Assembly: GCA_035368605.1 (NCBI GenBank)
Contig: DAOSLF010000003.1
Coordinates: 889-64,888 of the forward strand
Direction: 5' to 3'
DNA length: 64,000 nucleotides
From: Candidatus Omnitrophota bacterium
GTDB taxonomy: Bacteria; Omnitrophota; Omnitrophia; Omnitrophales; Aquincolibacteriaceae
Shown here one piece after another: positions 1 through 17,640 of this stretch. Both the position numbers and the translations under genes were made by a program. The notes below the pieces were generated by a model. That model was not told where the DNA came from and made no database searches. It was given only the letters and a program-made list of their open reading frames with translations. Position 1 is the first letter of the stretch. The number at the start of each line of letters is the position of its first letter.

Positions 1-3000
1 AATGTGAAGCGCCGGCGCCCGTCTCGGCACGGACAAGTTCTCCGGCCGCGTTATAAGTCATCGTGTAATCCCCGACTTTACATTGAAACCCGAGGAACCC
101 GCCCTCCTCATCCTGCACAATTTCACGCGACGTCCCTTGAGGCAGAGACTGTTCAAACAGCGAACCCTCCGCGAGCCGTCCCCGGACCGGAACGTAATCT
201 TCAATTTCAAGAATCAATCCGTTCGAAAACTGGATCTGCCCGGCTTTGATTCGCTGATCTTCATCAAACACAAGATTGACCGCCGTGGCGCCCGAGGCGA
301 GATGAACTTCGGATCCCTGATCCCCCTCAAAAATGATCCAGGAACCGTCCGGGGCCTGATACCCCTTCAGACTGACAGCCCGAAGACCTGTTTCCGCATA
401 GGCTGCATTCTTATAGTCGCCGGGGTCGGGAACCGCTCCGTCAGGAAGCGTTTGGAAATAATCGGAATATTCATAAAGGTAACCATCCCGGGTAAGATGC
501 TTGATCAGTTTGCCGTCGGCGTCATAAAACCATACCGTCCCGCGTTCATCCGTGATCCGGGTCTCTTCACCTTCATAAGAATACCGGGTGCTGTTCAAAA
601 CACGGTTCCGGTAGGTCAATTCCGCTCCGATGATCTCCTCATCGGAATAAAGGTAGTGAGTCACGATCCCGTTCGGGTCTGCCGAGGTTAAAAGTTTTCC
701 GCCCCTGAACCGGCGGACTTCCCCGCTCACAGGATCCGTGAAAACGGTGATCTCGTTTCCTTCGCTGTCAAACTCATAGGAAAGATCATATTGCCTTCCA
801 TCCGGCTGGATAATCCTCCGGAGCGCGCCGTAGCTGTAACTGACCGCCGGGGACCCGTCCGGGGAAGTATGATCCGGGCCGCCGATACTGATCTCGGCCG
901 AGTTCTCGGAAAATTCATATTCGTTGACGATCCCGTTCGGAAGCGTCACGCGGGTCACCTCGCTTCCGTTCAGTTCAACCCGGGTTCCGTCAAATCTCCG
1001 GAAGGTCACAAGCCGGTTCGCCCCGGCAGTCGTGTCCGTGTGAATCATCCGCGTGGGAATATCCAGATAAGGCAGGAGCCCCGGAAAAGTGAGCGGTGTT
1101 CCGGCGGCAATGGTCGCGCCGACCGAAGAAAGGTTCTCGGCCTCGATCTTGAGATTCCTGATCCGGGAAGCCCGAATACCCGCCTGCTCCTCCCAGAGAG
1201 GCTCTTCAAAAGTTTTCAGGCTCATGTAGGAAACATCCTTGAAATAGACGCATCCTTCCTTTCCCACGCCGTCGCTTTCCTTCACAAGTTCGAGAGTGAT
1301 CTCGCCTTCCAATCCGGCTTTGCCCGCCATGGGGAACCAGAAGGTCCGGTATTCCGGCACCAGGTTTTTCATGCTGAACGCATATAAAGTGTTGTAGCCC
1401 GTTCCTTTTATCTTGAACGTAAAATCCTGGTTCCATGTCATGGAGGGATCCTGCATGAGGGTGACCGACAAAAATCCGTAATCGGAGATCTCGAACGGAG
1501 AGTTTTGATGATTAAAAACCATCCCGAGGACGTGGCTTGTGCTCGTGCTTTGATATTGAAACATAAAATACGCCTGGGAGTCATAGCCGATATCGGCCCG
1601 CCGGGCATAGATCATTTCGCCCTGGGGGTGATCGGGATAACTGAACTCCCCGACGATCGACCCCGGGATCGCGATCACATTCAGCGTTCTTGATATAAGC
1701 TGCGCCCGTTCAGCGGCCCTCTCGGGAAGCATGAGATATTCGAAAAGAGGCATGGAAACGGGCTCGCCTTCCCGCGTAAATTCCGCGTCAACCCCGACAA
1801 CGCGGCCGGCCGCGTCGTAACGATAAACAAGATCCGTGCGGCCATTCCGGAGGGTCTCGACCGCCGTGATCTCGGTCCCCCGGTAATAAAGCCATATGCC
1901 CTCGCCGACACTCACCCGGTTACCCGCGAATTCATCAATATCCATCTCCCTTCCGTCGTTCAGAACCGCATGGGCCCGGATCAGGTTGCCGTCGTCTCCG
2001 AACTCAATCCCCGTAAGAATGGCCTGAGGGGTCGTGATCGAAATGATCCGGCCTCCTTCCATCTGAACCGTGTTCCCGTCCTGAATCATCGTCCGGAGCG
2101 TCCCGTCGGTATTGAAAATCCTCCGGCGGTCATTGTCCTGGATATTGAAGGAATGGATCGTTCCCCGGAGGTCCTGATCGTAGTAAAAACGACCCGTTTC
2201 CAGCTTCCCCCGCGCGAGATCAATGATGAAACTCGCAATCCCTTTTTCATAGAGCACCGTCCGGCCGTTACGAAAAACCCACTTTGAAAGAAGCCCGTTT
2301 TCAAAATACTGAATACTGCCGTCCGCCCGCCGGAGAATGCCGCTTACAAGTTTCCCGGACGAATCGATCGTAAAATTCTCGAGAATTTCCTCGGCATCGC
2401 GAACCCCTCCGCCGAAAGCCTCCGTGACGATCCCGTTCCGGATCAATGTCCTTATCTCCTGTTCGCTTTTACCGAGCATCATCGCCCAGTCCAGCCGGTT
2501 CGTTGTCCGGACCTTGAAGCCGGAAAGCGGTCCGATATAAATTTCTCCGGCAACAGGCTCCCCGTTCGCCGACTGAATGACCGTCGTTATCATCTCCGCC
2601 CTGCCGTCAAGCGGCCGCACCACCGGGATCGTGATGAACTGCCATCCCTGTTTTAGCGGTTCGGTCAGAAAAATATTCCCGGTCCCCTTGAATTCGAACT
2701 TCAGTCGTATGTTTTCCGGCGTGCCGTCACCGACGCGGACGGGAACCGAAAGAAAATCAAAGCGGTCCAGGTCCAGGGGCGCGGCGCTGTACTTGTTCCA
2801 AAGCCCCACAGGATGCTCCGCGTCCAGGAACTGGAACGCTATCTGGCGGACTTCCCCCAATAACGGATCGCGGATCAGTTCGCTTGCCGCGTAACCATGC
2901 AGAGGCGTATAAAAAGCTCCCTGGGAATCCGCCCTGTTGTAAACATCGAGCTCAAAACCTCCCATGAGGGCCCGGCCGAGATCGGTATGCCCCGTCAACA

Positions 3001-6000
3001 AAAGATATTCCTGGATATCCATTTCCCTGAAACTGCCGCCCTCTCCGAACTCGATCGCGCTGTGGTGGAAAGTTCCGTCCGGCTGGCGATAATTGAACAC
3101 ACGACCTTCGCCGAATCTGGAATCAAAAACGTTCGGAATAAAGCTCGGCTGTTTCACAAGGCCGGACATCTTTCCGTCGGGCATAACGCTTCCGCCGTCA
3201 TAAAGCACTTCGACGTTTTCGCCGAACGGGGGCATGGGGAGCGCGGAATCCGTCGCGGGGTTCAGATTCAACAGGAACGATCCGTAGAGGTTGTCGAAAC
3301 GCTCCGCGACACCCCGGTCCATCAGATAGCTCCGCAAATAACCCCGGCTCGTCGTGAGAAGCGAAAGAATGAATGATGCCTGGTCCACACCGAAATACTG
3401 CGACGAAAAAACAGGCTCTTCGGTCGGCAAGATCTCCCCCGTGACGGGATCCGTATGAAGAACGGTTCTTATCGAAAGAGCGTCCACAAAACCCGCTTCC
3501 GTCACGATCTCCGGAAAACTCGTTTCCAGATTCTTGAGAAACTGAAGCGTGTAATGCGGGGCCAGGCCAAAGGCCGAGGCTGTCCCGTAAATTGACCCGA
3601 TATCGCTATGGCGGACATCATCCGCTTCGGCGGCCGCGGGAAGACCGATTTTGCCTTCGTATCCGTACCCGGGATTATCGCCCGCCGACAAAAGGCCGGG
3701 ATTCCCGGTCCCGAAAGCGTATTCGGCCTGCACGTAAAGAAAATTCCGGAGCGCGACATTGAATTCGGGATACCGGGTTTCATCCACGTGGATCAGCGGC
3801 CAGAACATCTGGAAGGTCCCTCCGTCAAACGGCGCCGCGAGTTCGATTGCCCGGCCTTCTTCCGTCAAGTAACGCCGGATTGTGACATCCAGTCCGTCAA
3901 ACGCAGGTTGATACTCGGGGTAATTCGCCGCGAGCCAAACCATGCCCGGGCGAAATTCGTTGAACAGGCGGTCTATATAATAATTGTTAACAAACTCCCA
4001 TTGCCCGGTCTGCGGATTAAGTCCGTAAGCACCCCGGAAACGTTTTTTCACGGAATCATAAAAAGCCGCGTATCCCGCTTCCTGGGCTGTCAGGATCGCG
4101 TTAGCCCGTGCGACAATACTTTCCCGCAGAACCGTCATATCGGGCTCAAGAGAAAGATTTTTTACGGCCCCGAGCACACTCGAAAGGCTGACGGCAAGGT
4201 TCAGCGTGTCTCCAAAACCGTATTGATCGGAAAGGTTTTCGTAACGGTAAGTCTTTATGACCTCCCCGGTTGGCTCCCCGGATTCATCAAGGACCGGCTG
4301 CTCATTTTCAATGATCCTGAAAAAAGCGACCATACCGTTCCATCCCGCCTGACGCTGGACTTCCTGATAGACCGCCAGCAAGGCTTCCAGTTTTTCGAAA
4401 GCCTGTTTCCTTGAAACAAGCGGCGTTTCAAAATCACCGGCCGCGATCGCGGCAAGGATCTCGGCCCAGAAACCCACAAGCGTAGCCTGGCTGTAATCCG
4501 ACTGTTGATCTTCCGCGAGCAGGTAATTATCGAGAGGAAGTCCGGTGCCCGCGTGGAGCCCTTTGCCTTCCGAAAAAAATCCGAGCTGTTTTTCGACCAG
4601 ATACCGCCGGTAAGCGGCTTCGGCGGCCGTCAGAGCCTCCGGAGGGGACGCGGGACCGGGCTCTTGAAATTCGATCGCGTCCGAAAATTCGAGAAAACGA
4701 CCGGACGCGGTAATTTGTTTGACGATCTCATTGTTTTCGATCAGGCATTGGGTCCCGTCACGAAAAAGGATCTCGCCGCTGAAAATATACCCATTCTCAT
4801 CAACCGTCAGTGAACGCAGGCTCGCGTTGGGAAGTTCGATCACGGAAACAAAGTGCTTCCCGGGAAGAAGCTCGGGAACCTCATAGGGCTCGATCCGGAC
4901 CTGTCTGGATTGAACATAACGGACCGGGCGGCCCTGCTCGAATTCGATCCGTCCCCCGCCCGGGAGATCGATCTTTACAAGTTCGGTCAGCCTTTCAGTC
5001 AATCCTTCGCCGTTCGGATAGCGGATCACCCGATAGGTCATTCCGTCTTCCGTGATGAGGCTCTCGGGTTCCCGGCTGTTCCGATAATCGATGAAGATCG
5101 TCCGGACACCATCCGCCCCGATCCGTTCGATCACTTTGGAGTTTCGATAGATCTCTACCTGCCCGTCCGCGGATGTCCTCCTGAAACCCGTCAGGCTGGT
5201 CCCGTTCCAGACAAGCTCCGTTAAAACAGTTCCGTCCGAGAGCACGATACGGTCAAGCGAACTTTCGTCGATACGAAGAAGCGTCCCGTCGCTTAGCCGC
5301 AGGCCCTCCAGCGCGCCCTCCGCGTTATAGATCTGAACCACACCGCTTCCGTCATCCCAGGAAATCGAAAGAAGGTCGCCGTTTTGAGATATCTGATTCC
5401 CGATCGAAACAACCCGGTGATCCGGCCCCGTCAAGGCGACGGGCAGGCCATCCGCAAGCCGCAGAATCTCTCCTTTTCCTGAAACCGTCTGCCGGATATT
5501 TCCCGTCGCGTCGTATTCGATCCGTTCGAGAAGATCATTCTGCAGGGTCTCCCAGGCTTCAGGGAACGCGTCCTTGTTTTGGAGGAAAAGGCCGGGATCT
5601 ATTTCGGTCGAAAAACCCGCCGGCCTGACGGCAATAATCTTCGATAAATAACCCGTAAGATCATGCCCTTCCCGGCTGATACTTGTTTCATAGCGGAAAA
5701 AATCACCGTTCGCATTCCTGTAACCTTTGAGAAATCCGTCTTCATAATAGACCTGGGTCCCATCCGAACGTTTGATCCAGAGCGGTTTTCCCTGATCGTC
5801 ATAGCGGGCGGTGAGGTTCTCTTCAAAACTCAAAATCCCGGTCACGGAGCCTCCATCACCCGACCGGTAGGCGAAATCCGTTCTTTTTGAATCGGAGCCG
5901 AGAACATAGGCCACGGTCCCGTCCTCGTGGTAGATCAACTTCTCCCCCGACGGTTTCTCCAGGCAAACCGGCTTCCCGCCCTGATAAAGCATCCGGTCAC

Positions 6001-8260
6001 CGTTCTGAAAAACAAGAAGCCCTCCCGCGAGATTGTTCCCGGAATCAAATTCCGGAAGGTAAAGCGTATAAACCGAAGGCTGTTCGACCGCCGTCAGCAT
6101 ATCCCCGGCATACTTCAGCACCATGCCGTTTTGCGTGGTTAAGGTTATCGGGTCCGTGCCCAAAACGGGCACTCCGGGCACTTCGGGAACTTCGGGGGCA
6201 TTTTTCCGGAGCATCACTTCATGAGCCAGATAGGTCGAACCGCTTCCCCGGCTGCCGCTGATCAAAAGCTCGTTGAGACCCGGCCGGAGTCTCCAGGTCT
6301 CATTATGAAGCTCTCCGTCCACCGTGTAAGTCAGCGTATAGAATTCCTGATCCGTCAAAGACGGAGACGTCACGACCACAACGGGCAACACCGGGGCCGT
6401 CGTGTAAAAAATACTGTCGGAAAAAACCGTTCTGTTACCGGCCCGGTCCTCGACCTCGCACAAAACCGTTTTTAATCCGTCTCCTCCTTCCCCGGGGATC
6501 TCAACAACCTTGTTCGCTCCGTAAGTCTCCCAATCCGTCCAGCTGGACCCGTCATCCAGTGAAAACCTGACGCTGGCAACCGGGGAAAGATCGTCCTGCG
6601 CCTCGATAAAAAGAGCCAGGGCCCTCGAATCCGTCTCGGCGTCCCCCCTGTTGATCCGTAAACTCCCCCACGGCGGCACCGTATCCAGAAAAATCGTCAC
6701 GGTCTTCGTCGAAGTGCGTCCGAAAATATCGGTCGCGGAAAGAACCACCGTGTTCTCACCTTCCTGCAGGGAATAGCTCCGGGTCCGATCCTTGCCGTCC
6801 ACGGTGTAACGAAGTTCGCAGGAGCTTTCCCGGGTGTAAACCGGCTGTTCGGGTATTTCGATCTCGGGCGGAGTCGTATCAAGGACCCGGCGGCCGTCAT
6901 TGTAAAATTCTTCGACGGAACCTTCTTCGTAAAGGACCTGATAACCGGTGACGGCTTGTCCGTCCGTGATATTCCGGATAATGCTTTTGGCGGGTATCGT
7001 GCTCGCGCGGTCGAGCGCGGCTGTCAGCGATTCGGGGAGAAATGCGCCGCGGCCATAAGACTCGGAGGTCGCCCGGATACTGTAATTCCCGGTCCCGGCG
7101 TTCACGAATACCGGATCGGCCTTCAGATTTCCGGCTGTCTGCGCCGCGGCCGCGGGAGGCGTAGCGCTGCCATAAGCGGTACTCCGTTCCGTATTCTTCC
7201 AAAAGGTATTGTTCTCCACCACGGCATATCCGCGGCCTGGCTGACCGGCGGAGTGGGCGGCCCAGGAGAACTCATAGATCGATGAAAATGTGCTTCCCGT
7301 GAAAATATTATTACAGATCCGGCTCTTCGCTCCGGAAAGGACGTTTATGGCGATATCGTTCGCCACGAAGGTGTTGTACCTGATCACGGTCGTGTCCTTC
7401 GGGAGCTGGACTCCGACATGCGTCATCGAAAAATAATTCATTTCGATCAGCGTATCGGAACCGTTCCGGACATGAATGCCGTAATCCTTGTTAGCCACGA
7501 TCCGGTTATGGCGGATCACAACCCTGTCTCCTTCAACGCGGATCGCAGCGGAAGGAGTCCCCGCGTAAGGGCCGATCCCCGAGATTGTCAGTCCTTCAAT
7601 CCGGTTATTCCCCATCGCGCGAATCCCCTGGATTCCCGTTTCATAATCACCGTGAAGGATCGTCGTATCTGCATTCTCCCCCTGCAAATTCACCCCGGCT
7701 TTCAGAATCAGCCCTTGGGGACACCCAAAGGCGTCGCGTTCGTAATGATAAGTGCCGGAATGGATGAAAAGGGTCGTCCCGGCTTCGGCGTTATCGATCG
7801 CGGACTGGATCGATTGTCCTTCATAGACATGACGGAACATTCTGCCATCCGGAAGTTTTTCCGTTACGATCCGTCCGGATTCATCATAAATATTCTGGTC
7901 CGTTCCCGGACTTTCGGAAAGCGGACCGGCGTTATTAGCGAGGAACTGCGTGGTGGCATCCGCAAGAACCGGTTCATCCGGTGCCGTTGATGAAACATTT
8001 GCCGCCGCGACAACCGGTCGGACCGCGGTGAGATCATAGTCCTGCGACGGAAGACCATCGCACCAGACCGTCTGGTGCCAAACAAGACAGAATACCAGGC
8101 AAAGCGCCACCACTCTGATGGACAGCCGATGCGAGCAGCGGCAGAAACGCTTCGCGAACGCAGGAAGTGGCAAGACTCCCGAAAGAGAAGCCTCCGCTTG
8201 AACCCGCGGCAAGATCATCACATCCCGATCACTTTGGCGTTCGTCGGATATTTTCTTCAT
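1..8260 (-). CDS. Giant secreted multidomain protein, 3' end beyond the window (>=2750 codons here): signal peptide, right-handed beta-helix repeats, Ig-like modules, YD/RHS-type repeats, central non-repetitive domain
   Basis: In 1..8260 the minus strand has no complete ORF longer than 101 aa, and none in the frame whose codons end at coordinate = 1 mod 3, so that frame must be open to the left edge. Manual reverse-complement translation from the ATG at 8258-8260 gives MKKISDERQSDRDVMILPRVQAEASLSGVLPLPAFAKRF..RVVALCLVFCLVWHQ (hydrophobic signal/anchor). Then come repeats NNRIEGLTISGIGPY / IRHNRIVANKDYGIHV / IRYNTFVANDIAINV (parallel beta-helix-like), TVPPWGSLRINRGDAETDS..SLDDGSSWTDWE (Ig-like), and many YD-type repeats (RYDDQGKPLWIKRSDGTQVYYEDGFLKGYRNANGDFFRYE; WFYDADGKLIKHLTRDGYLYEYSDY). 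An alternative start is the second Met at about 8218. The AT-rich 8261..8856 region is the upstream promoter region. Confidence 0.6.
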   Translation of the reverse strand, partial: MKKISDERQSDRDVMILPRVQAEASLSGVLPLPAFAKRFCRCSHRLSIRVVALCLVFCLVWHQTVWCDGLPSQDYDLTAVRPVVAAANVSSTAPDEPVLADATTQFLANNAGPLSESPGTDQNIYDESGRIVTEKLPDGRMFRHVYEGQSIQSAIDNAEAGTTLFIHSGTYHYERDAFGCPQGLILKAGVNLQGENADTTILHGDYETGIQGIRAMGNNRIEGLTISGIGPYAGTPSAAIRVEGDRVVIRHNRIVANKDYGIHVRNGSDTLIEMNYFSMTHVGVQLPKDTTVIRYNTFVANDIAINVLSGAKSRICNNIFTGSTFSSIYEFSWAAHSAGQPGRGYAVVENNTFWKNTERSTAYGSATPPAAAAQTAGNLKADPVFVNAGTGNYSIRATSESYGRGAFLPESLTAALDRASTIPAKSIIRNITDGQAVTGYQVLYEEGSVEEFYNDGRRVLDTTPPEIEIPEQPVYTRESSCELRYTVDGKDRTRSYSLQEGENTVVLSATDIFGRTSTKTVTIFLDTVPPWGSLRINRGDAETDSRALALFIEAQDDLSPVASVRFSLDDGSSWTDWETYGANKVVEIPGEGGDGLKTVLCEVEDRAGNRTVFSDSIFYTTAPVLPVVVVTSPSLTDQEFYTLTYTVDGELHNETWRLRPGLNELLISGSRGSGSTYLAHEVMLRKNAPEVPEVPGVPVLGTDPITLTTQNGMVLKYAGDMLTAVEQPSVYTLYLPEFDSGNNLAGGLLVFQNGDRMLYQGGKPVCLEKPSGEKLIYHEDGTVAYVLGSDSKRTDFAYRSGDGGSVTGILSFEENLTARYDDQGKPLWIKRSDGTQVYYEDGFLKGYRNANGDFFRYETSISREGHDLTGYLSKIIAVRPAGFSTEIDPGLFLQNKDAFPEAWETLQNDLLERIEYDATGNIRQTVSGKGEILRLADGLPVALTGPDHRVVSIGNQISQNGDLLSISWDDGSGVVQIYNAEGALEGLRLSDGTLLRIDESSLDRIVLSDGTVLTELVWNGTSLTGFRRTSADGQVEIYRNSKVIERIGADGVRTIFIDYRNSREPESLITEDGMTYRVIRYPNGEGLTERLTELVKIDLPGGGRIEFEQGRPVRYVQSRQVRIEPYEVPELLPGKHFVSVIELPNASLRSLTVDENGYIFSGEILFRDGTQCLIENNEIVKQITASGRFLEFSDAIEFQEPGPASPPEALTAAEAAYRRYLVEKQLGFFSEGKGLHAGTGLPLDNYLLAEDQQSDYSQATLVGFWAEILAAIAAGDFETPLVSRKQAFEKLEALLAVYQEVQRQAGWNGMVAFFRIIENEQPVLDESGEPTGEVIKTYRYENLSDQYGFGDTLNLAVSLSSVLGAVKNLSLEPDMTVLRESIVARANAILTAQEAGYAAFYDSVKKRFRGAYGLNPQTGQWEFVNNYYIDRLFNEFRPGMVWLAANYPEYQPAFDGLDVTIRRYLTEEGRAIELAAPFDGGTFQMFWPLIHVDETRYPEFNVALRNFLYVQAEYAFGTGNPGLLSAGDNPGYGYEGKIGLPAAAEADDVRHSDIGSIYGTASAFGLAPHYTLQFLKNLETSFPEIVTEAGFVDALSIRTVLHTDPVTGEILPTEEPVFSSQYFGVDQASFILSLLTTSRGYLRSYLMDRGVAERFDNLYGSFLLNLNPATDSALPMPPFGENVEVLYDGGSVMPDGKMSGLVKQPSFIPNVFDSRFGEGRVFNYRQPDGTFHHSAIEFGEGGSFREMDIQEYLLLTGHTDLGRALMGGFELDVYNRADSQGAFYTPLHGYAASELIRDPLLGEVRQIAFQFLDAEHPVGLWNKYSAAPLDLDRFDFLSVPVRVGDGTPENIRLKFEFKGTGNIFLTEPLKQGWQFITIPVVRPLDGRAEMITTVIQSANGEPVAGEIYIGPLSGFKVRTTNRLDWAMMLGKSEQEIRTLIRNGIVTEAFGGGVRDAEEILENFTIDSSGKLVSGILRRADGSIQYFENGLLSKWVFRNGRTVLYEKGIASFIIDLARGKLETGRFYYDQDLRGTIHSFNIQDNDRRRIFNTDGTLRTMIQDGNTVQMEGGRIISITTPQAILTGIEFGDDGNLIRAHAVLNDGREMDIDEFAGNRVSVGEGIWLYYRGTEITAVETLRNGRTDLVYRYDAAGRVVGVDAEFTREGEPVSMPLFEYLMLPERAAERAQLISRTLNVIAIPGSIVGEFSYPDHPQGEMIYARRADIGYDSQAYFMFQYQSTSTSHVLGMVFNHQNSPFEISDYGFLSVTLMQDPSMTWNQDFTFKIKGTGYNTLYAFSMKNLVPEYRTFWFPMAGKAGLEGEITLELVKESDGVGKEGCVYFKDVSYMSLKTFEEPLWEEQAGIRASRIRNLKIEAENLSSVGATIAAGTPLTFPGLLPYLDIPTRMIHTDTTAGANRLVTFRRFDGTRVELNGSEVTRVTLPNGIVNEYEFSENSAEISIGGPDHTSPDGSPAVSYSYGALRRIIQPDGRQYDLSYEFDSEGNEITVFTDPVSGEVRRFRGGKLLTSADPNGIVTHYLYSDEEIIGAELTYRNRVLNSTRYSYEGEETRITDERGTVWFYDADGKLIKHLTRDGYLYEYSDYFQTLPDGAVPDPGDYKNAAYAETGLRAVSLKGYQAPDGSWIIFEGDQGSEVHLASGATAVNLVFDEDQRIKAGQIQFSNGLILEIEDYVPVRGRLAEGSLFEQSLPQGTSREIVQDEEGGFLGFQCKVGDYTMTYNAAGELVRAETGAGASH

Positions 8261-8427
8261 CGATCAGAAAGATATCCGCGCGAAAGATCAAAGTACACGG
8301 ATTTAAAGCTTAAATTTTTTGGTTCTATCTCATAAGACGATTCATATCGCTTATAAATAGATTTTTGGGGCCGGGCAGCAAAAACCGCTAAAAAAGGATC
8401 AGGGATGGAACGGCGAGAAAGGCAATG

Positions 8428-8619
8428 CTAGAAGCTGAACTTTCCTGCGCAATGTTTTTCTTCGAGGATATCAAATATCTCGTTGATGTAGCCCTGGATG
8501 TGGACAGGCGGCTGATTATCGAAGAGGAGGGACAGGTTCAGGAGGAAACGGCGGACTTCCGTGGCGAGCTTCTGGTCTTTGATCCTGGAAAGCCTTGTTT
8601 CCAATTCTTCCATCAACAT
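8428..8619 (-). CDS. Hypothetical small protein (63 aa) immediately upstream of, and co-oriented with, the giant gene
   Basis: ORF-track entry MLMEELETRLSRIKDQKLATEVRRFLLNLSLLFDNQPPVHIQGYINEIFDILEEKHCAGKFSF. GGGAG lies about 10 nt upstream of the start, and codon usage looks like the genome. An overlapping plus-strand ORF 8425..8715 is an equally possible alternative. Confidence 0.25.
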   Translation of the reverse strand: MLMEELETRLSRIKDQKLATEVRRFLLNLSLLFDNQPPVHIQGYINEIFDILEEKHCAGKFSF

Positions 8620-8856
8620 TTGCTACTATCTCCCGTTTTCTTCAGGGAATATAACTCATTTTATGATAATTTGCAAGTCAATAAAGTCTTCGATATAGCA
8701 TTAAATAGCTATTGATTGCTTTGTATAGTCGATAAACCAAATAATTGATTTAAATTCACTAAGGTAAAGAAGAATCCGGTTCGATAAGTAACCATGACGT
8801 TATACACTATCCGGTGCCGGTTGCAGACTCTCAAACATAAACGAGGAGCCTCTTTC

Positions 8857-10272
8857 ATGAAAAAGACCATAGCGGTCCTTGCGATTCTCAGTATCACATT
8901 TTTGTCCCCCTTTTCCGCCTGGGCCGTCGGGTCAGGAGGCCTCGAGAACGCCTCCTTCAGCGCCCAACAGCTGAGCCTTGGCGGCGCCACGACAGCGACA
9001 CCGGATGAACCGGCCGCCATCTCCTACAATCCCGCCGGCATCGTGGACCTTCCCGGCGTCCAGGTCCAGGCCAGCCAGAACTTTATCAGCATGCTGACGT
9101 TCAAGGATAATGACGTCACAGGGGACACCCGGAGCTCGGGAACGCTCGCGTATGTCCCGACCGCGTATGTCACGATCAACCCGGGAAGGGTCTTCTGTGA
9201 CCGCCTGGCTTTCGGCATCGGAAGTGACTCCCCCTTCGGGCTCATGAACAAGTACAATTCCAGTGATCCGGCGACCCATTACACGGGCTGGCGGAACTAT
9301 CTCAAGATGTTCACGCTAAAACCGACCGTCGCCTACAAGTTCACGGACAAGCTCTCGATCGGCGGCGGCCCGATGTGGTACCGGATTTACGATTTCGGAG
9401 GCATCCAGGGTTATCCGAACAACCTCATCACGATCCCCTTCCTCGGAGTCAATACAGCTGACGGACAGATCAGGATCAACACGTCCGGCAACCATTGGGG
9501 ATGGCAGCTCGGCACACTCTATAAATTCAATGAAAAACACCGTGTCGGTTACTACTTCCGCAGTCCCGTGGTCGTGAACCTGAAAGGCCGGGTCAAGGTA
9601 GAAAACTCCAACATCTCACCACTTCTCGGCGGTCTCGGCCTCCGTAATTTTGAGACCGGTGTGCATACGAAGATGAGCCTTCCGATGAGCATGACTTGGG
9701 CCTACGCGTACCAGCCGACGAAGAAAACACACTACGAAGCCGATTTCATCTGGACCCGCTGGTCCACCATGAAACGCGTCTATTTCGTGAACGACACTTC
9801 CGGAAACGCGCTGGACGATGCGATCCTGAACGCGGTCCGCAGCGCCGACAAAGACTGGCGGGACGGCTTTGGATTACAGCTCGGGGCAAGCCACAAGCTC
9901 ACGGACAGGCTGACGCTCCGCGGCGGAAGCTGGTTCTACTGGACCCCGGTCCCGAAAACCCATTTCACACCAAGTATCCCCGATGCCAATCACCTGGTGC
10001 TTTCTCTCGGTCTCGGCTACAAGCTCAGCAAATATCTTGTCGCCGACCTCGCCTATTACAACTCGTTCTATTTCAAACGCCGGATCAATAATGACATCGC
10101 CGAGAATGCCGCGCTCCTCAACTCCTCCGTGGACGGGCATTACAAGACTTATTCGCAGGGCCTTACCGTCAGCATGACGCTCAAGTGGGATGATATCTTT
10201 CCCCGCGTGACGCGCGCGGGCGACGAGGAATCCATCGGTTCGTCCATGAGCATGAACCCGGCCGCCAGATAA
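8857..10272 (+). CDS. Outer-membrane transport protein, FadL/TodX (OMPP1) family-like
   Basis: Re-called at the internal ATG at 8857 (AGGAG 8 nt upstream). Signal peptide MKKTIAVLAILSITFLSPFSAWA. The N-terminal region FSAQQLSLGGATTATPDEPAAISYNPAGI matches the FadL N-terminal hatch motif (..GLGRAYSGEGAIADDAG..NPAL). The protein is about 470 aa, typical of a 14-strand barrel. Confidence 0.6.
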   Translation: MKKTIAVLAILSITFLSPFSAWAVGSGGLENASFSAQQLSLGGATTATPDEPAAISYNPAGIVDLPGVQVQASQNFISMLTFKDNDVTGDTRSSGTLAYVPTAYVTINPGRVFCDRLAFGIGSDSPFGLMNKYNSSDPATHYTGWRNYLKMFTLKPTVAYKFTDKLSIGGGPMWYRIYDFGGIQGYPNNLITIPFLGVNTADGQIRINTSGNHWGWQLGTLYKFNEKHRVGYYFRSPVVVNLKGRVKVENSNISPLLGGLGLRNFETGVHTKMSLPMSMTWAYAYQPTKKTHYEADFIWTRWSTMKRVYFVNDTSGNALDDAILNAVRSADKDWRDGFGLQLGASHKLTDRLTLRGGSWFYWTPVPKTHFTPSIPDANHLVLSLGLGYKLSKYLVADLAYYNSFYFKRRINNDIAENAALLNSSVDGHYKTYSQGLTVSMTLKWDDIFPRVTRAGDEESIGSSMSMNPAAR

Positions 10273-10291
10273 AAAGGTCCGAAAAACAAAA

Positions 10292-10330
10292 ACCCGGTAC
10301 CGGCTTTGGCCGGCACCGGGTTTTTTTATT
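10292..10330. terminator. Bidirectional rho-independent terminator between the convergent FadL-like gene (+) and gpsA (-)
   Basis: AACCCGGTACCGGC-TTTG-GCCGGCACCGGGTTTTTTTATTTT. A GC stem is flanked by an A-run on one side and a T-run on the other. Confidence 0.65.
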
Positions 10331-10347
10331 TTGGGAACGATCAGGTC

Positions 10348-11388
10348 TTATTTCCGCCTGAACGCGGAAAGATCGAACGCCTTCCACTCGTCGTAGGGTG
10401 TGCGGGAAAGCAGGGACGAAACGGCATCCGCGGGTGACTTGCCTTCGAACAACATCTTGTAAACCTCGGTCATGATCGGGAGCTGGAGGTCCGGATACTT
10501 GCGGGAAAGTTGATGGACGCTGAGGGAGGTCCCGATGCCTTCCGCGACCATCGCCATTTTCCCGAGGATGTCCCCGGTCTTCTTCCCCTTGACGAGTTCG
10601 CGTCCGACATAAAGGTTCCGGCCGTGCTTTGAGGCACAGGTCGTGAAGAGATCGCCGATCCCCGAAAGTCCGAAAAAGGTGTCCGGGCTCGCGCCAAACT
10701 TCACGCCGAGCCGGGCGATCTCGTAGATCCCGCGCGTCATAAGACCCGCCTTGGTGTTATCACCGAACTTCAGACCATCGCAAACACCCGCGGCGATCGC
10801 AATCACGTTCTTGAGCGCGCCGCCGAGCTCCACGCCCACCACGTCCTTCTGGACATAAATACGAAAGCGCGGGTCCTGGAAATGCTCCTGGACATAAGAC
10901 GCCACGGCCGCATCGTCGGACGCCGCAACGAGCATGGTTGGTATCTTGCGCGCGACTTCTTCGGCGTGGGACGGACCCGAAAGGACAACGAGCCGGACAT
11001 CTTTCCCGAGGACCTTGTGGACGATCTCGGAGGGCCTCAGACAGGTCCCGTTCTCGATGCCCTTCGCGACATTGACGAGAATCTTTCCGCGATACGGGAG
11101 CTTCTTCAGCCTGAGAAGGACGCTCCGAAGGTGCTGGGTCGGGACCGCGAGAACAATCACATTCGCGAACTCGACGGCTGCCCTGAGATTCGAGGTGATG
11201 CGAAGGTCCTTCGGCAGTCTCACACCCGGAAGGAACCTCTCATTCACGCGTTTGCGTTCGAGCGTCTTCGCGTAATCGGGAAAGACGGACCAGAGCAGGA
11301 CTTCGTTCCCGCGCCGCAGGTTCACAAGCGCAAGCGCCGTCCCCCACCCGCCGTCACCTATAACACTTACCTTGATCGGTTCAGTCAT
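10348..11388 (-). CDS. gpsA: NAD(P)H-dependent glycerol-3-phosphate dehydrogenase
   Basis: MTEPIKVSVIGDGGWGTALA Rossmann N-terminus, ..GLKFGDNTKAGLMTRG..EGIGT... Start re-called at the internal ATG (11386-11388); the 53-codon extension in the ORF track has no homology role. Confidence 0.9.
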   Translation of the reverse strand: MTEPIKVSVIGDGGWGTALALVNLRRGNEVLLWSVFPDYAKTLERKRVNERFLPGVRLPKDLRITSNLRAAVEFANVIVLAVPTQHLRSVLLRLKKLPYRGKILVNVAKGIENGTCLRPSEIVHKVLGKDVRLVVLSGPSHAEEVARKIPTMLVAASDDAAVASYVQEHFQDPRFRIYVQKDVVGVELGGALKNVIAIAAGVCDGLKFGDNTKAGLMTRGIYEIARLGVKFGASPDTFFGLSGIGDLFTTCASKHGRNLYVGRELVKGKKTGDILGKMAMVAEGIGTSLSVHQLSRKYPDLQLPIMTEVYKMLFEGKSPADAVSSLLSRTPYDEWKAFDLSAFRRK

Positions 11389-11477
11389 GTTATTCACCGC
11401 TTTAAACGTTCTCATTGCCGGTACAGCATAACAAAAATCGTGACCTGGGACTTGTTCCCGGGGACAGATCCCCGCAT

Positions 11478-11903
11478 TCAGGGTTTCCTGCTCCTCAAAA
11501 GCGTATGCACTTTCACTTTCTGCCGGATCTCGTCCGGGATGCGACACGGACGCAGCGTCTTATCGACGAACACGTGCAGCGTGTCACCGGTTGTGATGAT
11601 CTTGTCCGTCCCTTTCCGGATAACCTGATACTGGAACTTGATCGAGCTCGCGCCAAGGTGACTCACGCTGGTCCGGATGATTAACTCATCGTCGTAGGTC
11701 GAAGGGGCGATATACTTGGCGTGCGCCTCCCCGACCGGGAGGAAGAGTCCCTTTTTCTCGCATTCGGTATAGGGCAGGCCGAGCGCCCGGAAATATTCGT
11801 TGCGCGCCGCCTCGAAGAAACGGAAGTAGTGGCCGTAGTAGGTGACGCCCATCCGGTCCGTATCGGCGTAAATGACACGGTATTCGTGATCAAAATATTC
11901 CAT
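11478..11903 (-). CDS. Acyl-CoA thioesterase, hotdog fold (YbgC/FadM-like)
   Basis: MEYFDHEYRVIYADTDRMGVTYYGHYFRFFEAARNEYF is a 4HBT-type N-terminus. Start re-called at Met11 with GGGAGA 7 nt upstream; that start sits 19 nt downstream of the dnaJ stop. Confidence 0.7.
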   Translation of the reverse strand: MEYFDHEYRVIYADTDRMGVTYYGHYFRFFEAARNEYFRALGLPYTECEKKGLFLPVGEAHAKYIAPSTYDDELIIRTSVSHLGASSIKFQYQVIRKGTDKIITTGDTLHVFVDKTLRPCRIPDEIRQKVKVHTLLRSRKP

Positions 11904-11922
11904 TTCTGTCTCCCGGACCGTT

Positions 11923-13047
11923 TCAGCCCACACGGTTGAAATGGCTAAAGAAGCCTTTCTTCGACGCGACCTTGTCGCCCCGCTCCGCCGCGAGGGCTTC
12001 GAGAAGTTCCCGCTCGGCCTTCGACGGTTTCGAAGGCACTTCGACCTGGATCCGCAGGTACAGGTCCCCGCGCCGATCCGGCATGTTGACCGCCGGCAGT
12101 CCCTCGTGGCGGACTTTCACGATCTTTCCCGAAGGCGTCCCCGGCTCGATCGTGAGCTCCGTCTTGCCGGTCAGCGTCACGGCATCGGCCTTTCCGCCGA
12201 GCACCGCGACCGTGTAAGGGATCAGCGTTTCCGCGTAGAGGTCGTGCCCCTGGCGCTCGAACACCTTGTGTTTTTCGACCGTCACATGGATGTAGAGGTC
12301 TCCGCGGCCGCCCGCACCCTGGCCGGCCTCGCCTTCCCCCGTCACCCGCAACCGGGAACCATCCTCGATCCCGGCCGGAACATTCACCTGGAGCTTGCGG
12401 ACCTTGCGGACGCGTCCTTCCCCGCGGCAGACGTGGCAAGGTTTCTCGATCGATTCCCCTTCGCCGCCACACTTCGGGCAGGTCCGCCGCATCGAGAAAA
12501 ATCCCTGCGTGATCCTGACCTCGCCCCGGCCGCCGCAATCGGCGCAAACCTTCTTCCTTGAACCTTTTTCCGCGCCACTCCCGCCGCATTCCGTGCAAGT
12601 CTCGCGCCTCGGGATCTCGAGCTCCATCGCCTTGCCCGAGAGCACCTCTTCGAGCGTGAGCGTCACCGGGTATTCGAGATCGGAACCCCGGCGCCCGCGC
12701 GCCCCGCTGCGGCGACCGCCCCCGCCTCCGCCACCGAAGAAATCCTCGAAAAGATCGCCGAAGATGTCGCTGAAGCCGCCGAAGGAGTCCTGGAAGTTCT
12801 CGAAACCCGAGAAACCGCCGCCCCCGAGGCTGTGCCCGAACTGGTCGTAACGGGCGCGTTTGTCGGAATCATTCAGAACGGCGTAGGCCTCGGCCGCCTC
12901 CTTGAATTTCTCCTCAGCCTCCTGACTGTTGGGGTTGCGGTCCGGGTGGTACCGGAGGGCGAGCTTCCGGTAGGCTTTCTTCAGTCCATCCTCCGTCACG
13001 TCACGGCTGACGCCCAACACTTCATAGTAATCGCGCTTTTGTTTCAT
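11923..13047 (-). CDS. dnaJ: Molecular chaperone DnaJ
   Basis: J-domain [33 protein letters not shown], a G/F-rich linker, and four CxxCxGxG zinc-finger repeats. Confidence 0.92.
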
Positions 13048-13121
13048 AGAGTACGGGGTACGGAGTACGGGGTACGGAGTAAACGGTTTTGAGACTCCAT
13101 ACTCGGTACGCCGTACTGAAT

Positions 13122-13751
13122 TTAGGTGATCTCGTCCTGTTTTTCGGGAGGAGGGGCGGTGCGGACCCGGACCTTCGCGGCCCGCAGGAGCCGGTCGTGG
13201 AGCATATACCCGGTCTCCAGCTCGTCGACAATGACGTCCTCCTCTCCCTTTTCCTGGACGCGAGCCACAGCTTCATGGCGGTGCGGATCGAACTTCTCGC
13301 CGACCGTTTCAAGACGCGTGAGACCGTGGTTCCGGAGAATATCGGTCAGCTGTTTCTGGACCATCTGGATCCCGGTGGCGACGTTCTTGAAATTCTGGCG
13401 AAGTTTTTCCTCATCGGCCTCGGCGAGCTCACCGGCGGTCGTATGCTCGACGGCACGGCCAAAGTTATCGAGTACGGGGAGCATCTCGCGCATGATACGC
13501 TCCATGCTGAACTTGATGAATTCGTCCTTGTCGCGGAGCGCGCGTTTTTTCGCGTTCTCGAAGTCCGCCGCGGCGTGCAGGAACTTCTCGCGGAGCCCTT
13601 CGAGCTCTTCGACACGTTTTCTGAGCGCCTCGTGCTCTTCCGGGGAGATCGCGGCCTTCGGCGTCTCCGGCACCGGAGGGACGGAAGCCTTCGCGGGCTC
13701 TTCAGGATGGTCATTCTTGTGGTTATGCCTGGAGTTCGGAGTCACGATCAA
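13122..13751 (-). CDS. grpE: Nucleotide exchange factor GrpE
   Basis: [30 protein letters not shown] GrpE core. The start is non-ATG (TTG at 13751 or GTG at 13745), overlapping the hrcA stop as TTTTGATCGTG. Confidence 0.85.
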
Positions 13752-14569
13752 AACCCTTCCCCGGATGCAAAAAGCTCGCCGATCAGACCGGCTACCCGTG
13801 AAACAAGCGGGATCACCCGCCGGTACGGCATCCGTTTCGGGCCCAGGACCGCGATCACGCCCGTCCCGAGGTCCCCGGCCGAATACCGGGCCGTCACGAT
13901 CGCACAGTCCTCAAGGGCTTCGCTGCCGTTCTCGCGACCGACCGAGACCGAGACCTTCGACTCGTGGGCCTTCTCGAGAAGCCACTGCTTCAGGAGAATC
14001 TTCTCCTCGAGTGTCTGCAGCAACGCCTTCAGCTTGTGGATGTCACGAAACTCGGGTTTTTCGAGGATATGCGTAAGACCCTGGAGCGACAGCTTGAGCT
14101 CGTCGATCTTCCGGGAAAGATCCGGCTCGGGGGCCATCGAAAGCGAGAGACCGATCTCCCGCGTGACGGAGGAAAGAAGTCCCGAAACCCTGTCGAGGAA
14201 CGCCTCGATGGCGCGCTCCTGGCGACAACCCTGGCTGATCTCTTCCGCGACCCGGGCAGAGACAGTCTCCGGGAGCTCTTCATCAAAGGGCAAGTGGTCC
14301 AGATAATAACGGTATCCGTCATCGGTCGGGATACGTCCCGACGACGTGTGCGGATGCGACAGATAGCCCATTTCCTCAAGCACGCCCAGTTCGTTACGAA
14401 CGGTGGCCGGCGAACAGCGGAGTGAGTAGCGGCGGACGATGAACTGCGAGCCCACGGGGTCGCTCGTCTCGATATGGGACTCCACCACACTCCGGAGTAA
14501 ACCGGATTGTCTCGGGGTTAACGGTATCATAGGGAGGGATATGATAGCAGAAAATGCTCCATTCCTCAA
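13748..14569 (-). CDS. hrcA: Heat-inducible transcription repressor HrcA
   Basis: LTPRQSGLLRSVVESHIETSDPVGSQ (winged-helix N-terminus) and C-terminal ..GVIAVLGPKRMPY. An alternative start is the ATG at 14530 (MIPLTPRQ). Confidence 0.85.
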   Translation of the reverse strand: MRNGAFSAIISLPMIPLTPRQSGLLRSVVESHIETSDPVGSQFIVRRYSLRCSPATVRNELGVLEEMGYLSHPHTSSGRIPTDDGYRYYLDHLPFDEELPETVSARVAEEISQGCRQERAIEAFLDRVSGLLSSVTREIGLSLSMAPEPDLSRKIDELKLSLQGLTHILEKPEFRDIHKLKALLQTLEEKILLKQWLLEKAHESKVSVSVGRENGSEALEDCAIVTARYSAGDLGTGVIAVLGPKRMPYRRVIPLVSRVAGLIGELFASGEGF

Positions 14570-14588
14570 TACAGTCCCGGGGTCCGGC

Positions 14589-15974: not shown

Positions 15975-15981
15975 GATCCGC

Positions 15982-17640
15982 TTATACCGCCGGCGGGGTT
16001 CCGCCCTGCGTCAGATGGGCGCGGCGGGGATTCGCCTTGCCGTACTCCATGAAGATCGCCTCGATCTCGTCATAATCCAGTTCGTTCTTCTGAAGGAGCT
16101 CATGGGCGAAACGCTCGAAGATGTCCTTTTCCTTGCGGAGGAGCGTATCCACCTCGGCCATGCAGTCCTTCAGGATCTTGTCGACGTCCTGGTTGAGCCG
16201 GGTCTTCATCTCTTCGGAGAGGAGCTGCGGGGCGACCGTGTAGTCTCCCACGAGACCCGACGGCCCCATCCCGTATTTCCAGACCATCGCGTTGGCATAA
16301 TTCGTCGCCTGATAGAAATCACTCCCGGGCCCTCCGCCGACACCGGTCGTGGTCGTTCCGAACTTGATTTTCTCCGCGACATAACTCGCGACGCAGACCT
16401 TGATCTCGGCCAGCATCGACTCGCGGTCGTTCAGGTGCCATTCCTCGATCGGCGTGGGATGCACGACACCGAGGGACATCTTCCGCGGGATAATCGAGGC
16501 CTTGAACACGTCGTCGCGCGGATGCAAAAGGTACGTGACGATCAAATGGCCCGTCTCGTGATACGCCGTCATCTCGCGTTCCTTGACGTTTATGGTCAGC
16601 TTCTGCTTCACGCCGAGCTCGATACGCTCGATCGCTTCGGAGATATCCTTCAGCGTCACGGAATCGCGTTTATTGCGGGTCGCGATCAGGGCCGATTCCT
16701 TGACGATGTTCTCAATGTCGGCCGGCGACTTGTCCACCGCCTTGCGCGCGAGACGCTTGCAGTCAACCGAGGCCTCGTGTTTGACCTTGCCCAGATAGAA
16801 CTTGAAGAGCGCCTCGCGGCCCTCGAGATTCGGTTTCTTGATATAGACCTTCCGGTCGAAACGTCCGGGACGGAGCAGCGCGGGATCGAGTACGTCCTCG
16901 GCCGCGTTCGTGGCCCCGATCACGACGATGTTCTCGGTCTTTTCCCCGAGACCATCCATCGCGACGAGTAGCTGGTTTTGGGTGGTGTTCCCTTCCCCGC
17001 TCCCGAACTGGCTGAAGGTGCGGCGGTGCCCCATCGCGTCAAGCTCATCAATAAACACGATGCAGCCGCCGAACCCGTAGGCCATGCGGGCGGCTTTCTT
17101 GAAGAGTTGGCGAACGCGGCTTGCGCCGACGCCGACGAAAATCTCGTTGAATTCGCTCGCGGCCATCGAAAGAAACGGCAGCCCCGCTTCCGTCGCGATA
17201 GCCTTCGCGAGATATGTTTTGCCGCACCCGGGAGGCCCCATCATCAGGATGCCGCGAAGAATCTTGCCGCCGATCTTCTTGAGGCGCGCATGGTCCTTGA
17301 TAAGCTGAACGACCTCCCAGCACTCCTCTTTGGCCTCGTCGATCCCGATCACGTCCGAAAACTTCACGTTCACGTCCTTGGCCGCGATATTCTTCTTTTT
17401 CTCGAGGTTCCCGAGGTTGCCGCGGAACAGCACCATATAAATATAGGCGAAGACCACCGCATTGATGACCATGATGATCATCTGGAGCGGCAACTGCGCC
17501 AGCGTGATATTGCGGTAGTAGCTTTCAAGCGACGCCATCCCCCAGATCGAGAGGAGGATCAGGATGAGGGAGGCGGCCACGATCGCGATCTTGATCCAGT
17601 GATCCATCCAAAAAAGCTTCCAGCGACGGTATGATTTCAT
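15982..17640 (-). CDS. ftsH: FtsH-family ATP-dependent zinc metalloprotease (short form, minimal periplasmic loop)
   Basis: Two N-terminal TM helices; Walker A GPPGCGKT; Walker [10 protein letters not shown]; SRH ..[22 protein letters not shown]; M41 zinc site HETGH. Start re-called at the ATG ([10 protein letters not shown]) with AAGGAG upstream; the ORF-track Met is a TTG. Confidence 0.75.

Follow-up and report, generated by a model that had tools for sequence, protein, structure and literature searches.

EeSGL1 of Endozoicomonas elysicola (PDB 8XUJ) is the founding endo-β-1,2-glucanase of glycoside hydrolase family 192 (GH192), and the GH192 enzymes that have been characterised consist of a single domain of ~440 residues and come from gamma-proteobacteria (PMC12102758). 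Clan GH-S unites GH192, GH144 and GH162, and a Glu of the E221 type defines this SGL clan; the clan Phe lies near the nucleophilic water, and the clan Tyr stacks at subsite −3 (PMC12102758). The EeSGL1 variant D149N keeps <0.1% activity, and E221Q is inactive (PMC12102758, where GH186 is also mentioned). Here we describe a giant gene at the left edge of a 64,000-nucleotide stretch of contig DAOSLF010000003.1 from a Candidatus Omnitrophota bacterium (the whole stretch is called the window). The gene encodes a GH192-type domain at residues ~1210–1670 of ~4,300. As in the GH192 enzymes, the barrel extends over the full enzyme length, the catalytic Asp149 and Glu221 positions are conserved, and a conserved Phe and Tyr, probably the clan pair, are present. 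In contrast to these enzymes, the domain is embedded between YD-like repeats, is followed by sandwiches resembling carbohydrate-binding modules (CBMs), and has ~21% identity to EeSGL1.

The protein also shares features with the Rhs/YD toxins, i.e. the Rhs effectors of the type VI secretion system (T6SS), TcB-TcC and the teneurins. It is a large, putatively exported protein with a few bona fide YD repeats, and its orthologues have a variable C-terminal module and a co-varying downstream gene. In contrast to these toxins, no RHS core motif and no PAAR, VgrG or TcA partner are found here. The repeats are degenerate and interrupted by enzyme and CBM-like modules, and the variable tail is separated from the main repeats by ~1,000 residues and two transmembrane helices. 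As is generally known, the Tle proteins of T6SS are lipase effectors with periplasmic Tli immunity proteins. The orthologues similarly have an α/β-hydrolase module with a Ser nucleophile elbow, encoded beside the gene of a signal-peptide protein. Unlike Tle, the module is fused to a giant scaffold and not delivered by T6SS, and it has no Pfam or PDB similarity to the known Tle families.

The N-terminal part resembles phage tailspike or depolymerase β-helices and the receptor-binding-domain swapping of CdiA, in that a distal right-handed β-helix is present and recombination occurs at a domain boundary. This likeness is one of architecture, and there is no two-partner secretion (TPS) domain or CdiB partner. 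Within the phylum, the giant proteins of the Archaeovorin and Dockerin types likewise have a signal peptide, transmembrane helices, C39-like domains and carbohydrate-active or carbohydrate-binding modules. They share a proposed attack on the envelopes of neighbours and, at the orthologue loci, a T2SSE-type ATPase nearby. The protein described here differs from them in its size of ~4.3 kaa (thousand amino acids), its two strong transmembrane helices and its lack of SecA-DEAD or dockerin domains; no matches to SecA, dockerin or TSP3 were found in the window protein or the orthologues P0001 and P0002. Judged by the features that define these giant types (great length, many transmembrane helices, a divergent SecA-DEAD domain, and dockerin or TSP3 arrays), it has just a weak C39-like domain and the phylum in common with them. 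The 2023 papers (Seymour et al.; West-Roberts et al.) focus on open reading frames (ORFs) >20 kb or proteins of ≥30,000 residues. According to a term search, West-Roberts 2023, Seymour 2023 and the preprint 10.64898/2026.06.07.730766 do not mention GH192 or β-1,2-glucanase, YD repeats, a polymorphic hydrolase cassette or a ~4.3-kaa family.

The giant gene combines three known kinds, the multidomain carbohydrate-active enzyme, the long Omnitrophota protein and the polymorphic effector. With a probability of roughly 0.55, we regard its product as a long envelope-attacking or envelope-feeding device, which is a non-canonical polymorphic effector and not a Rhs cocoon toxin.

Reality and extent of the giant gene

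The gene and the small gene used to find other copies of the locus are as follows.

2..8260, minus strand: giant gene, N-terminal 2,753 codons (no stop, homologues, L014 extension, substitution ratio)
8428..8619, minus strand: orf63, small conserved gene that immediately precedes the giant gene (54–78% identity in relatives; exact copy on at least 21 contigs)

The minus strand has no stop codon from 8263 to 2. Counted from the ATG at 8260, 2,753 codons are open and run off the left edge, and the longest complete minus-strand ORF inside 1–8260 encodes 101 residues (6897–7202). This agrees with the first-pass annotation, which had described an edge-truncated frame of more than 2,750 residues without a complete ORF above 101 residues. 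The plus-strand ORFs of up to 268 residues in the region are antisense shadows. A protein search gave 11 homologues with 41–62% identity, covering 65–98% of the query and mostly full length with the same domain order. The nine complete orthologues have 4,267–4,468 residues, and all are from Omnitrophota. In comparison with the 88%-identical relative L003, the ratio of nonsynonymous to synonymous substitutions (dN/dS) is 0.07–0.30 in those blocks that are not saturated, which begin at codon 211. L003 is contig JAKJDL010000010.1 of an Omnitrophota metagenome-assembled genome (MAG).

Using the 63-residue protein of orf63 as an exact-match anchor, the same locus was found on at least 21 contigs from many samples. 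The contig L014 (JGI 3300010344, Ga0116243_10000152, 158 kb) is 100.000% identical to window 1–18619, and nine further assemblies are collinear with the window at 99.4–99.98% identity. In L014, the frame stays open for 524 codons more beyond the window edge (1,573 nucleotides of extension were read), which gives at least 3,277 codons. The gene call there has 3,679 residues and still runs off the contig. The frame thus continues leftwards as had been predicted, and the proposed translation of the whole ORF was achieved for these 524 codons, the gene end lying beyond the L014 contig. A stop codon or frameshift splitting the frame had been named as a check; four assemblies have no in-frame stop in 3,263–3,277 codons. 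The true length of the window protein is at least 3,679 residues, and that of the orthologues is ~4,300. Because of the homologues, the low dN/dS, the recurrence in at least ten independent assemblies and the open L014 extension, the frame is real coding sequence. It is a genuine, vertically syntenic gene of ~4,300 codons from uncultured Candidatus Omnitrophota, and the window holds its front two-thirds.

The start codon is uncertain among ATG 8260, ATG 8218 and TTG 8173. The ATG at 8260 (MKKIS) is conserved in L003, and other gene callers chose ATG 8218. Residues are numbered here from ATG 8260.

All long assemblies of the species (L013, L014, L016 and L017) break off within the giant gene, and the products called there have 3,418–3,716 residues. 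According to the alignment to orthologues, the breaks fall in the C39-like/transmembrane/glycine-rich region, before the variable cassette. They could be caused by strain heterogeneity or by a repeat elsewhere in the genome; no paralogous modules able to explain them were found within the window. A scan of metagenome contigs with the last 370 residues gave 170 pattern matches and no relative. If the gene were an artefact, i.e. a chimeric assembly or a decaying pseudogene with an accidental long frame, such breaks in every assembly would be natural. The low-coverage contig L015 has the gene as five ORFs, and the sharp identity switch against L003 described below resembles a mis-join. However, the splits in L015 are sequencing errors, because this contig has 2x coverage and 25 gaps. 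The collinear assemblies (at least ten, 99.4–100% identical) come from different samples and pipelines, and L013–L019 and L021 pass the codon-461 junction unbroken. The absence of stops in the four assemblies, the dN/dS values and the 11 homologues with the same domain order also argue against an artefact, which we consider extremely improbable. A chimeric assembly of the window was rejected on account of the independent collinear assemblies at 99.4–100% identity.

Modules of the protein within the window

The enzyme domain and the sandwiches that follow it are located as follows.

3251..4633, minus strand: GH192-type (α/α)6-barrel endo-β-1,2-glucanase domain, residues ~1210–1670 (sequence, profile, AlphaFold2 and Foldseek)
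4208..4210, minus strand: codon D1351, predicted general base
3956..3958, minus strand: codon E1435, predicted general acid
2501..3157, minus strand: CBM-like β-sandwich A, residues ~1702–1920, directly after the barrel (AlphaFold2 and Foldseek)
1061..1675, minus strand: CBM-like β-sandwich B, residues 2196–2400 (homologous to sandwich A)

Using the single sequence, phmmer gave 8XUJ as the only PDB match (E 8e-12). The profile of a 53-sequence family matched residues 42–442 of the 447 residues of 8XUJ with E 3e-97, and the next matches were GH189 (E 6e-29) and GH144 (E 0.02). An exhaustive library search for the barrel domain gave 203 representative relatives. The AlphaFold2 model of the barrel has a predicted local distance difference test (pLDDT) score of 89, with values >93 over most of residues 21–470 of the modelled segment. 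In the Foldseek comparison the top match is 8XUJ with a template-modelling (TM) score of 0.83, followed by GH162 (0.71), the GH189 domain of cyclic glucan synthase and GH144 (0.72). The top 14 matches are all β-1,2-glucan enzymes or close relatives of the clan.

D1351 aligns to D149 of EeSGL1 and is Asp in 52 of the 53 family members; E1435 aligns to E221 and is Glu in 52 of 53. In the alignment, F1483 (52/53) and Y1534 (53/53) are conserved with plausible spacing, and they are probably the clan-defining Phe/Tyr pair (F286 and Y367 of XcSGL). According to sequence, profile, model and fold comparison, the barrel domain is a member of GH192, and it is probably active on β-1,2-glucan. The first-pass annotation had guessed an (α/α)-barrel glycosidase here, with PF10091 as a lead. 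Pfam lacks an adequate model of the family, and its PF10091 matches the barrel only below threshold; the guess itself was right. The two motifs quoted at that time, NYYIDRLFNEFRPGMVWLAANYPEYQPAFDG and GNPGLLSAGDNPGYGYEGKIGLPAAAE, were found at residues ~1427–1457 and ~1520–1546. In Foldseek, sandwich A is similar to CBM11 (6r3m, TM 0.60), CBM29, CBM6 and CBM27. The hhalign probability between sandwiches A and B is 94.8% (E 5.5e-8).

In the manner of other long Omnitrophota proteins, the protein might be mainly a structural adhesin or coat protein, whose enzyme-like modules would act as lectins. For the large proteins of this phylum, a role as adhesins or coat components is a widespread interpretation (PMC10066038; West-Roberts et al. 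2023). The Ig-like modules, CBM-like modules and repeats agree with this explanation, as does a head in which no catalytic residues were identified. However, the catalytic-aligned residues of the GH192 domain and the clan Phe and Tyr are kept in 52–53 of 53 members, which would be needless for a pure lectin. Moreover, no other segment of the giant protein is as well conserved as the GH192 domain (mean pairwise identity 0.59–0.67), and the invariant Ser and His of the tail cassette, described below, argue for catalysis. We consider a mainly structural role unlikely.

Two other large proteins, P0014 and P0016, have a related β-helix head (45%) and a distant GH192-like domain (26–27%) in a different arrangement. 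Among the 147 GH192-like relatives listed, 36 have >2,000 residues and only 23 are of stand-alone size; therefore, the GH192 fold is often embedded in very large proteins.

The barrel and the sandwiches interrupt the following repeats.

4691..6160, minus strand: repeat block 1, degenerate YD-like β-hairpin repeats, residues 701–1190 (hhalign to block 2)
1676..2413, minus strand: repeat block 2a, YD repeats, residues 1950–2195 (Pfam RHS_repeat, and hhalign to block 1)
2..1060, minus strand: repeat block 2b, YD repeats, residues 2401–2753, cut by the window edge near the block end (Pfam RHS_repeat)

RHS_repeat matches block 2a at residues 2131–2157 with 27.5 bits and block 2b at residues 2560–2593 with 40.8 bits (cut-off 22). 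Block 1 has no Pfam RHS match. The hhalign probability of block 1 is 96% against block 2b (E 3e-9, several registers) and 95% against block 2a, and that of the negative control is 0.3%. Thus, of the two YD/RHS blocks reported at first, block 2 is significant in Pfam, whereas block 1 is related to it at the profile level only. Our own iterated repeat hidden Markov model (HMM) recognised just 3–4 YD repeats, those in block 2b at 2482–2508 and 2559–2591; the degeneracy of the blocks therefore far exceeds that of canonical Rhs repeats.

In a canonical Rhs or teneurin polymorphic toxin, a closed YD cocoon would encapsulate the toxin, autoproteolysis would take place at PxxxxDPxGL, and an immunity gene would be present. 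The two RHS_repeat sites above the cut-off agree with such a protein, and JGI, the source of P0001, labels it a 'YD repeat-containing protein'. The orthologues have a variable C-terminal tail and a co-varying downstream gene. However, a regular-expression search for PxxxxDPxGL was negative both for the window protein and for 24 homologues, among them the complete orthologues; single DPxG[LIVMW] matches in the same set are scattered at non-homologous positions. The 524-residue extension in L014 has neither an RHS match nor PxxxxDPxGL. Searched against the PDB, the block 2b profile did not match any chain of an Rhs, Tc or teneurin protein, and the sequences of YD block 2 gave nothing significant there. 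In the window protein, P0001 and P0002, there is no Pfam match to an NHL β-propeller, FN-plug or Tox-GHH/ABD. The repeats are split by ~770 residues (GH192 and a CBM-like sandwich) and then by the second sandwich, and the inserted modules look too large for the inside of a cocoon. Finally, ~1,000 residues (ILEI, coiled coil, C39-like and transmembrane helices) lie between the last main YD block and the variable tail. Judged from its sequence, the giant protein is not a canonical Rhs or teneurin protein. This explanation is largely refuted for the orthologues, and we regard it as very unlikely. The canonical RHS core end that was expected at first beyond position 1 is not borne out by the orthologues or the extension. 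Most of the domain architecture described at that time proved correct.

The N-terminal third of the window protein comprises the following modules.

8060..8260, minus strand: predicted N-terminal export signal, residues 1–67 (hydropathy peak at residues 42–60; aligns to the classical signal peptide of P0001)
6881..7888, minus strand: head, right-handed parallel β-helix, residues ~125–460 (Pfam Beta_helix and NosD above cut-off)
6161..6880, minus strand: two or three Ig-like/β-sandwich spacers, residues 461–700 (sub-threshold but mutually consistent matches)

The export segment has a long charged n-region, a hydrophobic core V50–W61 and a candidate cleavage site VWC/DG. The homologous segment of P0001 is a classical signal peptide, MKNKFSVQWKAVALLTSAFFLWDQVTWA, with a predicted cleavage site before DS. 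In the head, Beta_helix (PF13229) matches residues 212–335 with 37.3 bits (cut-off 25.9), and NosD (PF05048) matches residues 205–326 with 36.5 bits (cut-off 23.6). DUF1565, Pect-lyase and DUF5123 match weakly, and TIGR04247 matches partially. Hydropathy and alignment thus agree with the signal peptide noted at first, and the Pfam matches agree with the pectate-lyase-like β-helix repeats. The Ig-like modules noted with them have several consistent matches, all below threshold: Big_13 with 25.4 bits (cut-off 27), an OmpL47-type module with 22.5 bits (cut-off 40), and weakly Glucodextran_B and Big_3_3. The head and the first Ig-like module (residues ~125–530) recur at 37–54% identity in large proteins of different architecture.

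Exchange of head, body and tail between lineages

The comparison with L003 shows a sharp junction at the end of the head.

6878..6883, no strand: abrupt recombination breakpoint against L003, codon ~461, at the β-helix/Ig boundary (identity jump)

The breakpoint lies at ~11380 in L003. The flanks of the window and L003 have 71.6% nucleotide identity, and the first 460 codons have 33–73% identity. Between the 50-codon bins 411–460 and 461–510, the nucleotide identity rises from 0.58–0.73 to 0.95–0.99, and that of the third codon position from 0.36–0.58 to 0.86–0.98. The high identity lasts to the end of L003. Identity between the two species is ~97% in the gene body and ~72% in the flanks. In L006 and L009, whose flank distance is similar to that of L003, the gene bodies are only 55–58% identical; this points to a recent exchange of the body between species. 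The head is also incongruent in P0004.

Variation within the species is concentrated on the giant-gene side of the locus. L017 and L014 have no differences in the 10-kb housekeeping flank upstream of orf63. Their 46 differences are all from orf63 onward and are clustered in the GH192 region. In L013–L017, the within-species single-nucleotide polymorphisms (SNPs) are confined to the orf63/giant side (locus coordinates >10,000), and in four strains 29–100% of such variants carry the L003 base.

The C-terminal parts are known from orthologues, and in part from L014 beyond the window. After the YD block come an ILEI-like domain, a coiled coil, a weak C39-like region, two strong transmembrane helices, a glycine-rich hydrophobic stretch and the last ~470 residues. 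The ILEI-like domain starts ~80 residues past the window edge in L014, and the C39-like region has a His motif, HF(V/A)V(L/I/V). P0001 and P0002 have 75–87% identity in the body and 22–24% in the tail, whereas P0001 and P0006 have 45–59% in the body and 79–80% in the tail. The switch is located just past a conserved ...RETLGG motif, and the cassette types do not follow the phylogeny of the remaining protein. The tail cassette has an α/β-hydrolase fold with an invariant nucleophile-elbow Ser and an invariant His. No sequence relative of the cassette was found in Pfam or the PDB, and a word-index homologue search gave only four fragments; it was assigned by fold comparison.

The next gene downstream often overlaps the stop codon of the giant gene and usually encodes a TPR protein with a signal peptide. 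At the orthologue loci, this gene co-varies with the cassette type. The four type B loci have a common downstream protein of 280–306 residues with 45–55% identity, which is split into two ORFs in L007. The type A loci have a downstream protein of 174–177 residues, where the P0006 locus was compared by gene length. L005 and L012 share another downstream protein, and L010, the only locus with an unrelated cassette, has an unrelated downstream protein of 122 residues. By analogy, this pattern of cassette and downstream gene is that of toxin–immunity modules. The polymorphic-toxin-like system proposed in the first-pass annotation unexpectedly gains support in a non-canonical form, with a swappable C-terminal hydrolase cassette and a co-varying next gene in the orthologues.

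In a side observation at L023, a MazE/PIN toxin–antitoxin pair (19908–20542) is inserted after the TPR neighbour of the giant gene; this pair is absent from L001.

Proposed mode of action and genomic surroundings

As an envelope-attacking or envelope-feeding effector, the giant protein would be exported by Sec and anchored in the membrane by the transmembrane hairpin near its C-terminus. The swappable β-helix head would bind or cut a target surface polysaccharide, as phage tailspikes do, and we infer that it determines specificity. The GH192 domain and the CBMs would digest β-1,2-glucans, namely the periplasmic and cyclic glucans of Gram-negative bacteria. In nature, β-1,2-glucans are chiefly such glucans (PMC12102758; in part general knowledge). 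The variable hydrolase cassette may be the effector, and the neighbouring secreted protein its cognate partner, either immunity protein or chaperone.

Several points weigh against this interpretation. It needs ~3,400 residues to cross an outer membrane, and the topology of the protein is read from hydropathy alone. No TpsB, T6SS or type I secretion system partner is adjacent; the window protein has no match to a TPS/haemagglutination-activity domain, and its neighbours are FadL, orf63 and, in the orthologues, TPR proteins. A PilT/T2SSE-like ATPase is encoded three to four genes downstream in L001, L007 and L023. The head gave nothing significant against PDB sequences, and no catalytic residues were identified in it. 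In the orthologues, the C39-like domain is below the Pfam cut-off with no catalytic Cys evident. The cassette model, from 10 sequences, has a pLDDT of 72, which is of moderate confidence, and no triad acid was identified. The cassette is seen in the orthologues, the assemblies of the window species all ending before it, and its types A–C are remotely homologous variants of a single fold rather than unrelated toxins. The co-variation of cassette and downstream gene could come from linkage within one recombination tract instead of function. The L003 contig might itself be a chimera or mis-join; L019, which is 99.5% identical to the window, has the accession JAKJDM adjacent to JAKJDL of L003 and is maybe from the same project. 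Against a mis-join, the L003 body shares 97% identity with the window, which is below the 99.5% of L019.

The rest of the window is ordinary chromosome with HrcA-GrpE-DnaJ, GpsA, FtsH, UvrA, arginine biosynthesis, AsmA, RecJ and SecDF, and all genome matches with a named taxon are Candidatus Omnitrophota/Omnitrophica MAGs, in agreement with the source names of the matches. The divergently transcribed neighbour of the orf63–giant pair is as follows.

8794..10272, plus strand: outer-membrane channel of the FadL/TodX family (Toluene_X, E 2.7e-52)

The Toluene_X match agrees with the FadL-like porin named at first. An exact-protein look-up of this ORF gave no record, probably owing to a differing start-codon call. 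In every relative whose upstream flank was examined, the gene order is DnaJ, 4HBT, GpsA, FadL on the opposite strand, and then orf63 and the giant gene. Relatives with a downstream flank have, after the giant gene, a small gene, further small genes, a T2SSE-like ATPase on the opposite strand and AOX. The whole region from DnaJ to AOX is thus syntenic, housekeeping genes included. Because DnaJ, 4HBT and GpsA are equally syntenic, the adjacency of FadL is uninformative on function, and the suggestion that the porin is a component of the system loses its ground.

The possible 63-residue upstream ORF proved to be a conserved gene. It occupies the same position in all checked relatives (L001/L002, L003, L006, L007, L009, L010 and L012), and its conservation, with up to 78% amino-acid identity, exceeds that of the giant protein. 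Its consensus is ..ELE.RL..IKDKKLATEVRRFLLNLFLLFD..PP.HIQ.YI.EI.D.LE. No Pfam family was found for it, and only four matching clusters are present in a collection of 5.8 billion proteins. A promoter and terminator scan of 8000–8900, including a promoter-like site at 8676–8648, was not above chance.

E. coli OpgD and OpgG are periplasmic β-1,2-glucanases. With this precedent, the giant protein might serve its own cell, as an inner-membrane-tethered periplasmic enzyme that remodels the cell's β-1,2-glucans (osmoregulated periplasmic glucans) and other envelope polymers. In every relative with an examined flank, the gene keeps its place among housekeeping genes. This constancy, the purifying selection, and the signal peptide and C-proximal transmembrane hairpin, which fit a periplasmic location, are consistent with such housekeeping. 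However, module swaps of head and tail between lineages are not expected from it. Nor is it expected that nearly all within-species SNPs of the locus lie in the gene, in clustered tracts shared with the allele of another species, or that a variable hydrolase cassette is paired with a co-varying secreted partner. Moreover, ~4,300 residues with CBMs, Ig spacers and a tailspike-like head are excessive for self-maintenance. We judge self-directed housekeeping to be improbable.

Other unusual ORFs were observed in the window and in a relative. A minus-strand ORF of 1,587 residues (21656–26419) matches only SdrD_B and FlgD Ig-like domains, and it abuts end to end a 524-residue minus-strand ORF without a Pfam match (26420–27994); this pair (21656–27994) may be another large surface protein locus. 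An ORF of 1,380 residues (50775–54917, minus strand), ~1.3 kb from an AsmA-family gene (46962–49445), matches no Pfam family at E <= 1e-5. Between FtsH and HrcA, a 461-residue ORF (14589–15974, minus strand) has no Pfam match and 62–64% identity in L003 and L009. In L001, the contig of the 62%-identical orthologue, a separate 941-residue protein with a Pfam match to SGL_GH162 (β-1,2-glucanase) is encoded at 1–1556 on the minus strand. It lies upstream of the orthologue at a distance of ~8 kb, and nothing comparable was seen at the equivalent position of the window.

Implications for Omnitrophota

The effector interpretation can be extended to a more specific proposal, which we offer tentatively. 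The locus may represent a class of polymorphic contact-dependent effector that has not been described before in Omnitrophota. In this proposal, a conserved giant scaffold with a swappable targeting head would use GH192 against the periplasmic glucans of Gram-negative neighbours. An exchangeable hydrolase toxin cassette, placed after the transmembrane/glycine-rich translocation-like region and a junction of the (L/F)(S/N)RETLGG type, would act with a cognate secreted immunity protein. The gene body would move between species by homologous recombination, and FadL would perhaps take up released fatty acids.

The family GH192 dates only from 2025 and was established on small enzymes with a single domain. 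Here, a GH192 domain with conserved key residues is part of an exported protein several thousand residues long, in a phylum that is uncultured and putatively predatory or parasitic. This provides a concrete biochemical hypothesis, namely the digestion of Gram-negative periplasmic β-1,2-glucans. The hypothesis bears on the role of the long Omnitrophota proteins, which is called poorly understood in the literature. The locus breaks every short-read assembly examined; ORF tracks therefore systematically hide the giant gene. An envelope-attacking or envelope-feeding effector fits the predatory or parasitic view of the long Omnitrophota proteins (West-Roberts 2023; PMC10066038; 10.64898/2026.06.07.730766). 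An arms-race function is suggested by the modular swapping at both ends of the protein, by the downstream gene that co-varies with the cassette, and by a gene body that is nearly identical in species with flanks of ~72% identity. If this is true, the concept of the polymorphic effector would be extended to a phylum and an architecture without RHS core, TPS or T6SS hallmarks.

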